Origin: Eledone cirrhosa
Lineage: Eukaryota
Assembly (NCBI GenBank): GCA_964016885.1
Contig: OZ024747.1
Location: 30,752,001-30,816,000, forward strand
Reading direction: 5' to 3'
Length of the DNA stretch: 64,000 bases
A model generated the notes under the pieces. That model was not told the origin of the DNA. It ran no database searches and was given only the letters and a program-made list of their open reading frames with translations. Both the position numbers and the translations under genes were made by a program. Below, piece after piece: positions 2,059-59,396 of the stretch. Position 1 is the stretch's first letter, and each line of letters begins with the position of its first letter.

Positions 2059-2443
2059 TGAGCATACATATGATGAGCAAACATCACGGATGCTCTATCT
2101 CAAAATTATTTTTGAAAAGCATTAGAAATGCGCAACCGGTAAAACTTAAAACCAAAACTGAATACTAACCAATACTATTACTAATTCTCACTTATTCCTA
2201 ATTAAACTATTTTTCACTGTGAACAATTTGTCAGCATTTTCTTTTCCATTTACCAATATATCATAACTTGTGTGTTACACCTCTATTCTTTTATATATAT
2301 ATATATATATATATATATACAAGCATGGAAGATGGACGTTAAACGATGATGATGATGATGATATATATATATATATATATATATATATACACACACACAA
2401 TATATTAACAAATGGAAACTATATTTATAAAACCATATTTATT

Positions 2444-2508
2444 TATTTCATTATACATATTTCAAGGACACCAAAGCAAATTATAATGCGCTTTCATCAG
2501 ATAAAATA
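2444..2508 (-). ncRNA. Type I minimal hammerhead ribozyme (inverted copy, sense to host gene)
   Basis: Reverse-complement copy of 2604-2668 with intact CTGATGA and GAAA. Confidence 0.8.
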
Positions 2509-2603
2509 TAATATAGATCAGTTTTATAAACAAATATTGACATACCCTTAAATAATGCGACCATGTCGGTTGGAAGCTCCCGGTATAAAACTGAGCTATA
2601 TTA

Positions 2604-2668
2604 TATTTTATCTGATGAAAGCGCACAATAATTTGCTTTGGTGTCCTTGAAATATGTATAATGAAATA
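2604..2668 (+). ncRNA. Type I minimal hammerhead ribozyme
   Basis: Stem I TATTTTAT/ATGAAATA. CTGATGA at 2612-2618. Stem II AAG-C-GCAC/GTGT-C-CTT. GAAA at 2649-2652. Stem III ATA-TG-TAT. AUA site after 2660. Confidence 0.8.
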
Positions 2669-3034
2669 AATATGGTTTTATAAATATAGTTTCCATTTGT
2701 TAATATATTGTATTTTTACTCCAAAAATTTGTTGAGTGCTTTATATCAGTTATAAAAATATTTGCTTGTTGTACCCCAACAAATTAAATATAACTTCTAC
2801 ATATACATATATATATATATATATATATATATATATATATTCAGGTTTGAGGTTCACCACTATATAGAGCTGGTCTATTCTGTATGGTCAATCGTAATGT
2901 AATAATATAGAGAGTACTCAACGTAAGGCAGTTCAACCGTCTTTGTTTTTGTAGTTGGTGGTGCTATTACGGAGTTAAATATTATAATGAAATGACAGGA
3001 GGCTGGATTTGTGTAAATCCTTGAAAGGTTTATT

Positions 3035-3092
3035 ATACTATGATCATTTCAATGACTGGGTTCTGTATGAATCCGGTGATATCATCAGGTAT
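3035..3092 (-). ncRNA. Type I minimal hammerhead ribozyme
   Basis: ATAC-CTGATGA-[TATCACCGGATTC/GAACCCAGTCATT imperfect stem II]-GAAA-TGATCA (palindrome)-TA-GTAT. Confidence 0.78.
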
Positions 3093-56300: not shown

Positions 56301-57737
56301 GACAGAATGATGGAGGCCTTTACTTTCTGGATGCTCCAGGGGGAACTGGTAAAACCTCCATAATAAATCTCATGTTGGCAAAAGGAAGGCAGTGAAAGCA
56401 AATTGCTTTGGCTGCTGCATCAAGTGGTATTGCTGCTACCTTACTTGATGGAGGCAAAACATCACCCTCAACGTTCAAGTTGCCATTGAATGTCACAAGA
56501 GAAGAGTCTCTTTCATGCAATATCAAAAAGAACGCATCAAAAGCAAAGCTTTTAGAGAAATGCTCTGTGATCATATGGGATGAGGCCACAATGGCACACT
56601 GGAAGTTATTTGAGACTCTGGACCATTCTTTAAGAGACATTAGAGGATGTAATGAAGTCATGGGAGGAGTAACGATGGTGGTTGCTGGTCACTTCAGATA
56701 GATTCTCCCCATCGTTCCTAAAGGCACGAGAGCTGATATTGTAAACACTTGCCTCAAAGTCTGAACTATATGGCAACAAGTCCAGTGATTACCCTTGAGA
56801 ACAAACATGAGAGTGCAGTTTTACAATGATGCAGAAATTGATACTTTTGCAAAACAGTTAATTACACTGGGTGATGGAAATCTGTAACAAGATGAAAATG
56901 GAGAAGTCAACCTTCCATTTGGAAATGTCTGTAATACAACAAATGAATTAATTGATCAAGTATTTCCAAGTGTTGCCTCAAATTATATCAATCAATCATG
57001 GCTGTTTGACTAAAAAATTTAGCACCAAAAAATAATATGGTAAATCAGATCAACCAATGCCTACTGGATACACTCCCAGGAGAGGTTCATACATATGTCT
57101 CCATTGACAAGATTGAAAAGGATGATGATGTTGTTAATTATTCTGCAGAGTTCCTTAATAGTCTGGAACTTCCTGGACTTCCTCCGCACAAATTAATGCT
57201 AAAGATTGGAACTCCCATCATCCTTTTGAGAAACCTGGACCCACCACATCTATGCAACAGCATGTGCTTACCAATGAGGTAGATGATGAAACATCTAGAG
57301 GTCACTATTCTTGGAGGCAATCATCAAGGCAAAAATGCATTTATTCCAAAGATTCCACTTATCCCTTCCTCTACCGAGCTGCTATTCAAATTATCAAGAC
57401 TTCAGTTCCCTGTTATAGCCAGTTTTGCTATGACCATAAATAAAGCTCAGGGTCAGTCTCAAAGTTGTAGGATTGAATCTGAGAGTTTTTACCCATGGAC
57501 AGTTATATGTTGGTTGTTCATGAGTGGGAACATCTAGAAATCTTTATATACTATGCATGAATCGTTAAATAAAGAATCCTGTGTATCTGGAAGTTGTTTT
57601 ACCTTTTTTTATCCCACACCCACCACAGTCTCACCTCATACTGAAAACCAGACAATGCATCCAATACAATCATTTTCTCTTCTACCTGTCATCATTTATC
57701 AATCGTTCACCTGGACGAAGCCCAGTACTTCATCTAG
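53400..57737 (+). mobile_element. Decayed autonomous Helitron (Rep plus PIF1 helicase)
   Basis: CCLGGKV, YNAAFQMTSFG, ILPSSFTGSPRYM, PDLFITFTCNP.W, RGLPH, MIHGPC, FLDAPGGTGKT, SGIAATLL, IIWDE, PIILLRNL, FAMTINKAQGQ. 3' hairpin ctggacgaagcccag followed by CTAG|T at 57734-57737. Confidence 0.93.
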
Positions 57738-57912
57738 TATATTATATATATATACATATATATATACATATACATATATATATATATCTTTATTATATTT
57801 ATTAAAAAAATGACTTCGACAGGACTAGAACTATTAAACTATTCAGTCATATGAAACTATCATGATCTCATATGACTGAAACAGTTCTAGTCCTGTAGAA
57901 GTCATTTCTATA

Positions 57913-58826
57913 TCTATATATTACTAAAACTCTCTGATTGCTTGCTTGCTTGTCTGTAATGTAATACATCCCAAAGAGCACATAATGGGAAAATACTTTG
58001 AAAGGAAGTTGACCCTGAAATGGGAATACAAATGGAATAAAACAAGTTTCACATAAATCGAAGCACGCATTCCCAAGATATGGAGTTTTTCTGGGTACCT
58101 TCATAAATACCCAAAACGGTGAATGATGGAAAAATACTCTGAAAGTAACAGAACCCTGCAAACCTTCATAAATAGTCAAAACGGTGCATAATGGGAAAAT
58201 ACTCCGAAAGGAAAATAACCCTGAAATGGGAATACAAACGGAATAAAACAAGTTTAGCGTAAATCGGACATAGACAATATTTTCATTATTCAAAAAACAT
58301 TTTTAAGTGAATAGGATTTAAAAAATACATTAAAAAGTTTTTTTCAGTGATTTGTCAGTGAATATGATTTCAAAAATACAAGTTATTTGTACTTTAAGTA
58401 TCTATATTTCAGCTTTCTTTAAACAGATGATATTTTAATTATTAAAAAAAAAACATTTTCAAGTGAATATGACTGAAATATACGAGTTGTTTTTACAGTA
58501 AATGTTTATATTTTTGCTTTTGTTAAACAGAATATTTTAATTATTTAGAAATATTTTTAAGTGAATGTGATTTCGAAAATACCAGTTGTTCGTACAGTAA
58601 GTATTTATATATGAGCTTTCTTAGCACAAACAATATTTTAATTTAAAAAAAAATTATTTTCAAGTGAATACGATTAAAAAAATATGTTTTGGCATATTAA
58701 AAAAATATTCTTAAGTGAGAATGACCTTCCAATTTCATTTTACATTATATACATGTCTGTGTATATTTTAATTATTTAAAATTTATTTTTAAGTGAACGA
58801 GACCCAATGGGTCACCGGTGGTCTAG
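57913..58826 (+). mobile_element. Non-autonomous Helitron
   Basis: A|TCTATATATTACTAAAA 5' end, (GCTT)n, internal repeats, 3' hairpin gacccaatgggtc followed by CTAG|T. A similar 5' end occurs at about 19062-19130. Confidence 0.75.
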
Positions 58827-59354
58827 TATATTATAAAGATGCCTATACTCTACCAACATATTTAATACATTTTTTAACTGTGTTTACCCACCAACATAAC
58901 TAGGAAATCTACACACACACACACACACACTCACATATATATATATGTTTATGTATTTGTTTTGCAAGATTCTTGATATGAAATTATGAGTAGAAACAGA
59001 TATTGCTATATTTGGAGATGGTCATTTTGCCAATTTTGGTAACAGAAACAGACACACTATTTAACTTTCACTTCAGCTTTATTATTATTTATGGATTGGC
59101 AGTATCGGTAGAGAGTCGGACACCATGCTTTGAAGCATAGAGATACGTCTCTTTATGATCTGAGTTCAAATCCCACCAAGGTAAACTTTGCCTTTCATCC
59201 TTACGGGGTCGATAAATAAAGTACCAGTAATGTACTGGGTATTTTGCTGGCCTTGTGCCAAAAATAGAAACAATTATTATTAGTTATTGGTTATAGCTCT
59301 TTTCCCACACATTCTTTCTCTTTGCATCTCGATTTTGACAGAGAAGAACAAATA

Positions 59355-59396
59355 GTCATTGAGGAGGTCACAGTATATGTGACGAAAGAGCTTGAC
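59355..59396 (+). ncRNA. Decayed hammerhead ribozyme
   Basis: GTCA-TTGAGGA-G-GTCAC(AGTATAT)GTGAC-GAAA-GAGCT-TGAC. Confidence 0.6.

Follow-up and report, generated by a model that had tools for sequence, protein, structure and literature searches.

A 64-kb stretch of the Eledone cirrhosa genome (C7:30,752,001-30,816,000 of 3.0 Gb; hereafter the window, whose coordinates we use below) carries hammerhead ribozyme motifs at 12 loci. We conclude, with a probability of roughly 80%, that these motifs are the hammerheads of Penelope-like elements (PLEs) and of non-coding passengers mobilized by PLE enzymes. Five of the loci are truncated pseudo-long terminal repeat (pLTR) ends of autonomous PLEs of the Hydra and Neptune types. 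Another three are non-coding, retrozyme-like, head-to-tail units of 522, 319, and 472 nt, and the remaining four (3088, 7953, 24499, and 33720) fall in neither group. A first-pass annotation of this DNA had described a diversified set of non-coding, PLE-mobilized ribozyme RNAs. That description fits the three loci without open reading frame (ORF) homology and fails as a general account, with five loci being autonomous pLTRs; by the same token, the competing outcome that every family maps to pLTRs of autonomous PLEs holds for those five and not for all.

The window was searched with a descriptor of type I hammerheads (CUGANGA, GAAA, UH, and three stems, with a stem III loop allowed to about 20 nt). 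It returned seven intact motifs, compared with a mean of 0.11 and a maximum of 2 in 100 local dinucleotide shuffles, an excess that the first-pass annotation required. Cores started at 2500 (-), 2612 (+), 7953 (-), 18132 (-), 18606 (-), 40520 (-), and 41363 (+). All seven had a loopless stem III, a feature of no motif in the shuffles. An earlier, stricter descriptor (stem II of 40 nt or less, without the extra base) had found only two sites and was then relaxed. Allowing a U3-A8 variant of the core added 25256 (+) as well as a weak match at 39492 (-), which was dropped as chance. The motif at 3088 (-) was folded by eye, having been missed by the descriptor because of U-U and C-C mismatches within stem II; copies 97% identical to it occur elsewhere in the genome.

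Hammerhead folds had been proposed at 17 sites, of which nine are complete, seven are damaged copies of real families, and one (33720) is only a candidate. Core changes were found in five of the damaged sites (21665 [-], 22886 [+], 24499, 32654 [-], and 59355), while 32774 (+) and 32949 (+) have intact core letters and a broken stem. The candidate site at 33720 (33715..33796, minus strand) consists of a hairpin and GAAA; it lacks CUGANGA and had no homolog across ~970 kb of further genome DNA examined. Stem III, loopless in all seven descriptor motifs, has 4 bp and an 8-nt loop in the family at 32940. Additional CTGANGA sites at 13668, 33321, 34212, 37254, 40200, and 52782 had no family support, and another at 14527 is a repeated half-core. 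Overall, the hammerhead motifs in the window are real as sequence and fold, and self-cleavage is predicted.

The link to Penelope enzymes comes from the ends of the insertions. Where flanks were inspected, a TA or CA run bordered seven of nine insertions on one side or on both, and those at 7953 and 24499 finished in TA-rich sequence, against a background in which about 12% of bases lie near such a run; insertion at (TA)n, as first proposed, is borne out. Counting ends only where they adjoin a microsatellite, we found two fixed ends 3' of the hammerhead in all six families examined, abutting TA or other dinucleotide runs at offsets from C3 of 131/251, 179/205, 154/266, 102/200, 106/210, and 258/301-316. 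In 52 of 55 head-to-head pairs, a short end was matched with a long one (P = 8e-13 versus 50%), the three exceptions being long-long; these pairs were drawn from 121 loci after four duplicate loci were dropped. The non-coding families followed the same rule in 22 of 23 pairs (13/13, 5/6, and 4/4). In contigs from an outside study, the 522-nt family likewise showed TA-tailed loose ends at both of these points.

These ends resemble those of known PLEs. In PLEs, insertions show a (TA)n bias and include inverted ones, which carry the tail on one side (PMC8557442, PMC3846280). For the Poseidon element PAc in vitro, two internal start sites give the tail, and both strands of an AT-rich target are cut and extended (PMC11167929); our insertions would share these traits and differ in that tails span 26-120 nt versus 30-40 and in that the one-end-each rule is drawn from genomic copies. 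We interpret the two-end pattern as the PLE tail signature and as good, though indirect, evidence for movement of these RNAs by Penelope enzymes, in agreement with the Penelope-type insertion that had been suggested.

A mechanism consistent with this pattern would begin with a PLE protein cutting a (TA)n target on both strands. Reverse transcription would start at two fixed internal positions of the RNA, each serving one DNA strand (paired priming), and the two cDNAs would usually stop early and join head to head, leaving mostly short inverted ends that bear hammerheads. As in published retrozymes, two hammerheads would pair via their palindromic stem III, tandem transcripts would thereby be cut to unit length, and these unit-length RNAs may circularize. 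Copying starts 60-195 nt 3' of the predicted cleavage site and continues across it over more than one unit, so the template would be an uncut multimer or a circle.

The non-coding units display the tandem organization most clearly. The 522-nt locus (40270..41493) has (TA)n on both sides and is composed of a plus-strand part of 1.25 units (40843-41493; hammerhead at 41357-41438, truncated copy at 40843-40918) and an inverted minus-strand arm (40270-40846; hammerhead at 40445-40526). The 319-nt locus (24987..25435, plus strand) carries the U3-A8 hammerhead at 25252-25296 with a long stem I (25227-25322), a 10-nt stem III palindrome, and a short inverted arm (24987-25056). At 18010..18745 (minus strand), a 472-474-nt unit contributes hammerheads at 18530-18611 and 18056-18137 and an inverted truncated arm at 18619-18745. 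The 522-nt period was exact in 19 of 25 spacings and within 520-524 in all of them; the 319-nt family had a period of 319-320 (3/3 spacings), and the 472-nt family had one of 472 (1/1) and of 474 in the window. Non-coding arms reached 3.88 units with longest ATG frames of 44-78 amino acids, and none of the three units was matched by 91 PLE-like proteins. An exact 20-mer of the 522-nt family occurred 199 times. In keeping with retrozymes, these are non-coding tandem units of 150-1000 nt with a GC content of 35-36% (below 50%) and one type I hammerhead per unit. Stem II is long in the 522- and 472-nt families, for which a canonical hammerhead is not plausible; the hammerhead of the 319-nt family is HH9-like, and a canonical hammerhead with short stem II and loop-loop contact is plausible. 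Only two of nine loci of the 472-nt family exceed one unit. One insertion of the 522-nt family adjoins the 3' end of a Poseidon-like PLE (L018:2200-3450, minus strand).

Relatives of these families found by homology indicate that the fold is maintained. Among those of the 522-nt family, whole stem II sequences have been swapped with the fold kept, and in one related to the 319-nt family, C3-G8 stands in place of the U3-A8 of the window copy. Older relatives with 70-84% identity are also tandem and retain the fold through compensatory changes; because they too cross the unit junction, we regard the non-coding families as lineages rather than one-off accidents. An alignment of the largest superfamily, with 14 rows, has 95.6% of its cells paired and shows changes to both sides in 10 of 20 pairs; neither figure was reached in any of 500 shuffles, in a test that is partly circular because most rows were selected by the descriptor. 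In the same alignment, and in the 3035 and 24499 families, a pyrimidine mismatch recurs at the fourth position of stem II, perhaps as a tertiary contact.

Several observations weigh against the view that PLEs and passengers copied by their enzymes account for the motifs. In ~980 kb, none of the three non-coding families could be paired with an autonomous element having a homologous end. Loci were top matches to their queries, so the figure of more than one unit in 25 of 25 is partly selection, and the same holds for the descriptor-selected rows of the superfamily alignment. The four units of the L091 array carry nested variants, which inherited multimers fit better than a single rolling-circle pass. 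Folding energies of isolated monomers were uninformative for five of six motifs, being no better than those of shuffles. Cleavage activity in the literature is also weak: minimal hammerheads cut poorly (PMC4209133), eight of nine Xenopus dimers did not cut and one was active (bioRxiv 10.64898/2026.07.22.740005), and cleavage in vitro is protein-assisted and dispensable for insertion (PMC11167929).

These last results raise the possibility that the fold is kept as a protein-binding or dimerization signal for the PLE particle, with self-cleavage slow, protein-assisted, or irrelevant to movement. We consider this rather unlikely, and it is compatible with mobilization of the motifs by PLE enzymes. 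Cleavage is absent without protein and catalytic mutants still insert (PMC11167929), and in the Neptune family with the highest activity, stem I is only weak and mismatched. On the other hand, catalytic core letters are kept over diverged families and one lineage has exchanged C3-G8 for U3-A8, as selection on catalysis predicts.

A second possibility is that all families are pLTR debris of autonomous PLEs and that the tandem units arose as local duplications of pLTR DNA, never moving as RNAs of their own. An origin in pLTR debris is true of 5 of the 12 loci; a local-duplication origin has been proposed (bioRxiv 10.64898/2026.07.22.740005) and suits the nested variants of L091. Divergence among copies of the 522-nt family is 1.6% inside a locus and 3.3% from one locus to another (P = 0.0002), as local duplication would likewise predict. 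However, insertions with the 522-nt period are found at many dispersed loci and have fresh PLE-type ends at each, tandem organization extends to older subfamilies, and the units lack ORF homology, all of which make this explanation improbable. Non-coding passengers of PLE enzymes thus remain our preferred account of the three families.

The autonomous elements themselves are of two types. An inverted, 5'-truncated Neptune-type copy at 21414..23180 contains a GIY-YIG fragment (21927-22556, minus strand) and pLTR hammerheads at 21625-21669 (-) and 22882-22926 (+), both with a changed GAAA. All 150 scored matches to the endonuclease fragment were 96-100% identical, which marks the parent as a very active element. 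Full copies have a unit of 4,133 nt and a frame of 1,210 amino acids that includes a reverse transcriptase (RT), a CX2-5CxxC linker, and GIY-YIG, with the motifs DKSG, YVDD, CTNRKCIIC, and YIGET; a pLTR, partial tandem, inverted copy, and tail are all present at L087 and L088. By the motif criteria of PMC8557442, applied without a tree, the parent of 21414-23180 would be of the Neptune or Nematis type. It shares with those PLEs an RT with a C-terminal GIY-YIG, the linker, pLTRs, an inverted copy, and a tail that extends into the beginning of the ORF. A damaged hammerhead at 59355..59398 (plus strand) matches in sequence the pLTR of a second Neptune-type family and is joined to a different 3' end. 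We also noted an active Neptune-type ORF (L088:2537-6166, minus strand) with an in-frame asparagine-rich insert of ~165 amino acids, as in rotifer Penelopes (PMC3846280), and with at least 150 near-identical copies and 26,812 first-look candidates. At 58930-59030 (minus strand), a tail fragment of another Neptune-related element, ending in a TA run, is 59% identical to the first 34 amino acids of this ORF.

The Hydra type accounts for the most abundant hammerhead superfamily in the genome, with 82,043 copies, including 2500/2612 and 32774, which is the terminal repeat of these PLEs. One such element (L201) has a repeat period of 3,940 nt and a frame of 775 amino acids with the motifs RLRW, DKT, CNCRIKNKC, YRDD, and YFGST. 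Elsewhere, a Hydra-type ORF ends 1.3 kb upstream of a pLTR that is 92.6% identical to the 2612 family (L170), and a core of the 32949 family lies 435 nt downstream of another (L031). The notion that all families are non-coding was ruled out by such ORFs upstream of the large superfamily. Like Hydra-clade PLEs (PMC8557442), these elements have an RW motif, DKT, a CxCX5C linker, (TA)n targets, a hammerhead in the terminal repeat, and, at the C terminus, GIY-YIG without CCHH, whose absence was judged by eye. The third residue of RWK differs, and the period of L201 exceeds the Hydra-typical length of <3 kb. Unlike the few families described for the clade, the octopus harbors several subfamilies of ~3.9 kb with tens of thousands of ends. 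A family named Hydra-1_Obim is already recorded for Octopus bimaculoides (supplement of PMC8557442). A Pfam search assigned no family to either the Neptune-type or the Hydra-type protein, and the closest named relative of the resident retroelement protein was from O. vulgaris.

Within the window, a head-to-head Hydra-type pair at 2397..2806 retains intact hammerheads at 2444-2508 (-) and 2604-2668 (+), with the short end on the left and the long end on the right. A related pair at 32454..32876 has a core change in one hammerhead (32597-32662, minus strand) and a shifted stem I in the other (32766-32828, plus strand); by relatedness alone this 32.6-kb subfamily is probably of the Hydra type, no ORF link having been seen. 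A damaged head-to-head pair at 32896..33040 represents the abundant family with a looped stem III, fragments of which also lie at 12020-12083 and 57808-57907. Because the 2.5-kb and 32.6-kb families resemble each other at 67% and conform to a single superfamily pattern, the description of the families as unrelated was overstated. A total of 38 motifs from the window, its flanks, and the background sample grouped into 8 loose or 19 tight clusters. We looked for a tail sequence common to all families and found one shared only between the 2.5-kb and 32.6-kb families. The hexamer GTAAGT follows the hammerhead in four of seven families; it is splice-donor-like. The Neptune pLTR and all three non-coding families have it 69-129 nt past C3, and the Hydra type lacks it.

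Outside both groups, 3035..3092 (minus strand) has an intact core and a palindromic stem III and belongs to a young, dispersed family. A short solo element at 7840..8060 (minus strand) is the member of an older family and contains a textbook minimal hammerhead (7922-7957). Decayed or partial copies of it lie at 20011-20190, 39989-40085, and 59744-59922, and the core is kept in 14 of 24 copies collected by homology. A decayed copy of a real hammerhead family, with two core changes, occupies 24498..24557 (plus strand).

To place the window in context, we sampled forty 10-kb stretches at fixed steps along large contigs (399.8 kb) and found 28 intact motifs, with 0-3 in shuffles. The window held 8 intact motifs versus 4.5 expected (P = 0.14). 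A local hotspot was rejected on this basis; hammerhead density is a property of the genome and not special to this gene, and the window is not "very dense" by the standard of the genome around it. Across the whole genome, a pattern for one superfamily with an intact core gave 82,043 matches, compared with 0 for the reversed pattern. Scaled up to the genome, the 400-kb sample predicts 210,000 intact motifs (bootstrap 120,000-320,000). For the superfamily that could be checked, this extrapolation overshot 1.46-fold (120,000 predicted versus 82,043), and we therefore give the genome total as a range, an estimated 140,000-210,000 with a floor of 82,043. Two other abundant hammerhead families are absent from the window (L166, L175, and L192; L095, L158, L164, L169, and L182), one of them with a U3-A8 core. 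Published counts are 2,000-9,000 each in schistosome, coelacanth, and Xenopus (PMC4209133), >6,000 in a coral and ~5,000 in a mussel (PMC7229834), and up to 120,000 in axolotl (PMC7229834), whose genome is 28 Gb (bioRxiv 10.64898/2026.07.22.740005); the comparison between genomes is rough because descriptors differ.

The whole window lies, as first stated, inside one gene, a homolog of tolloid-like protein 2 with exons over C7:30,359,020-31,583,737 on the minus strand (~1.2 Mb). Four of its exons fall in the window, all on the minus strand: 876..1094 (CUB domain; amino acids 532-604), 38460..38681 (460-533), 43514..43699 (401-462), and 46977..47162 (338-399). The CUB exon is 94% identical to tolloid-like protein 2 of O. 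bimaculoides. From these positions, all named hammerhead sites are intronic, which carries little weight because the gene is so long. The elements probably built up passively within very long introns. Could they instead be a locus-specific regulatory device that cuts the pre-mRNA of this gene co-transcriptionally? The sense strand does carry six of the nine complete motifs, including 18530 and 18056 as a tandem pair. Against this, motif density is no higher than background, the families are young and dispersed, and a predicted fold of the pre-mRNA locks three of the four sense-strand motifs examined in hairpins with their inverted arms; we regard a regulatory role as very improbable. Given such locking, harm to the host gene would be limited. 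As for chance matches in AT-rich repeat DNA, the weak match at 39492 (-) and the candidate site at 33720 speak for them, but we consider the idea already refuted by the excess over shuffles in the window (7 versus 0.11) and the background sample (28 versus 0-3) and by the 82,043 superfamily matches versus none for the reversed pattern.

Much of this system has precedents in print, namely dimeric minimal hammerheads, (TA)n targeting, tails, retrozymes, and an octopus Hydra family. Minimal type I hammerheads with a palindromic stem III had been recognized in the window from the outset, correctly, and their traits are those of PLE minimal hammerheads (PMC4209133): a palindromic or absent stem III, an extra base between 9 and 10.1, a long stem II, the U3-A8 variant, opposite-strand pairs 100-700 bp apart, and many families per genome, mostly as solo truncated copies. 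What differs is scale, with 2,000-9,000 per genome in that study versus 82,043 for one superfamily here under a different descriptor. Like metazoan non-LTR (long terminal repeat) retrozymes, the non-coding families are AT-rich tandem units of a few hundred bases with one type I hammerhead each and proposed PLE mobilization (PMC7229834; bioRxiv 10.64898/2026.07.22.740005). In contrast, two of our three families have PLE-style, long-stem-II, loopless hammerheads rather than canonical ones. The published link between retrozymes and PLEs is co-occurrence and pLTR similarity, whereas ours is the PLE two-end signature, from genomic sequence alone.

In the published literature, with some supplements, Repbase, and Dfam outside the scope of our search, we found no paper on octopus hammerheads, and neither the hammerhead scale nor a two-end rule on retrozymes was found in print. 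Octopus was not found in one searchable supplement file of PMC4209133, nor "ribozyme" or "hammerhead" in the main text of a 2026 paper on O. vulgaris repeats (PMC13282606). These families may already stand in published supplements, Repbase, or Dfam. What appears new is the unusual numbers and the two-end rule on ORF-free units; the kind of system was already known. A bolder claim, which we advance tentatively and place somewhat below even odds, is that intact hammerheads in this genome number on the order of 100,000-200,000, which would be the densest animal load we found reported, and that they include several long-lived, still-spreading non-coding lineages copied as circles or multimers by Penelope enzymes via strict twin priming at two internal sites. 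The head-to-head insertions of these lineages would pack introns with long perfect hairpins, a possible feed for adenosine-to-inosine (A-to-I) editing in cephalopods.

With PLE-specific ends on ORF-free units, the enzyme that moves animal retrozymes becomes testable. The same genome also contains autonomous PLEs that are young (96-98% identity over the part searched), have long open frames, and are usable in trans. The near-absolute short/long rule points to paired priming as the origin of both the inverted repeats and the tails of PLEs. At this copy number, hammerheads rank among the major repeat classes of the octopus, which is relevant to repeat annotation, and the inverted insertions are possibly relevant to intronic double-stranded RNA.

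An Rfam scan gave a single hammerhead match in 77 rows (HH9 at 25239-25314, 28.1 bits), so that no hammerhead in the window reached the gathering score of 52; minimal variants would not be expected to be well modeled by Rfam. The remaining matches were mostly microsatellite-driven microRNAs. In two-copy cofolds, a clear double-hammerhead form was predicted only for 18606 and 2612 of five tried, the two copies of 18606 being joined through an 8-bp palindrome.

Other repeats share the window. An RTE-like long interspersed element (LINE) at 4245-7526 (minus strand) has an open frame of 1,093 amino acids with endonuclease, RT, and a PHD finger inside, and older relatives lie at 29371-31721 and 34386-36569. 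Another LINE fragment sits in a 1.2-kb tandem duplication (49984-52359, 84%). A second head-to-head insertion between TA runs (23182-23916) consists of repeats resembling short interspersed elements, without a hammerhead, and is related to 1447-1799. The array at 19139-19888 is built from palindromic units of ~100 nt split by (TA)n, with no hammerhead core. Foldback elements similar to miniature inverted-repeat transposable elements occur at 18855-19058, 7548-7668, and 60694-60943. Finally, we identified a decayed Helitron (53543-56701; Helitron_like_N and helicase fragments), an RT fragment of the LTR-retrotransposon type (63110-63778), and a 51-nt minisatellite (46238-46942).

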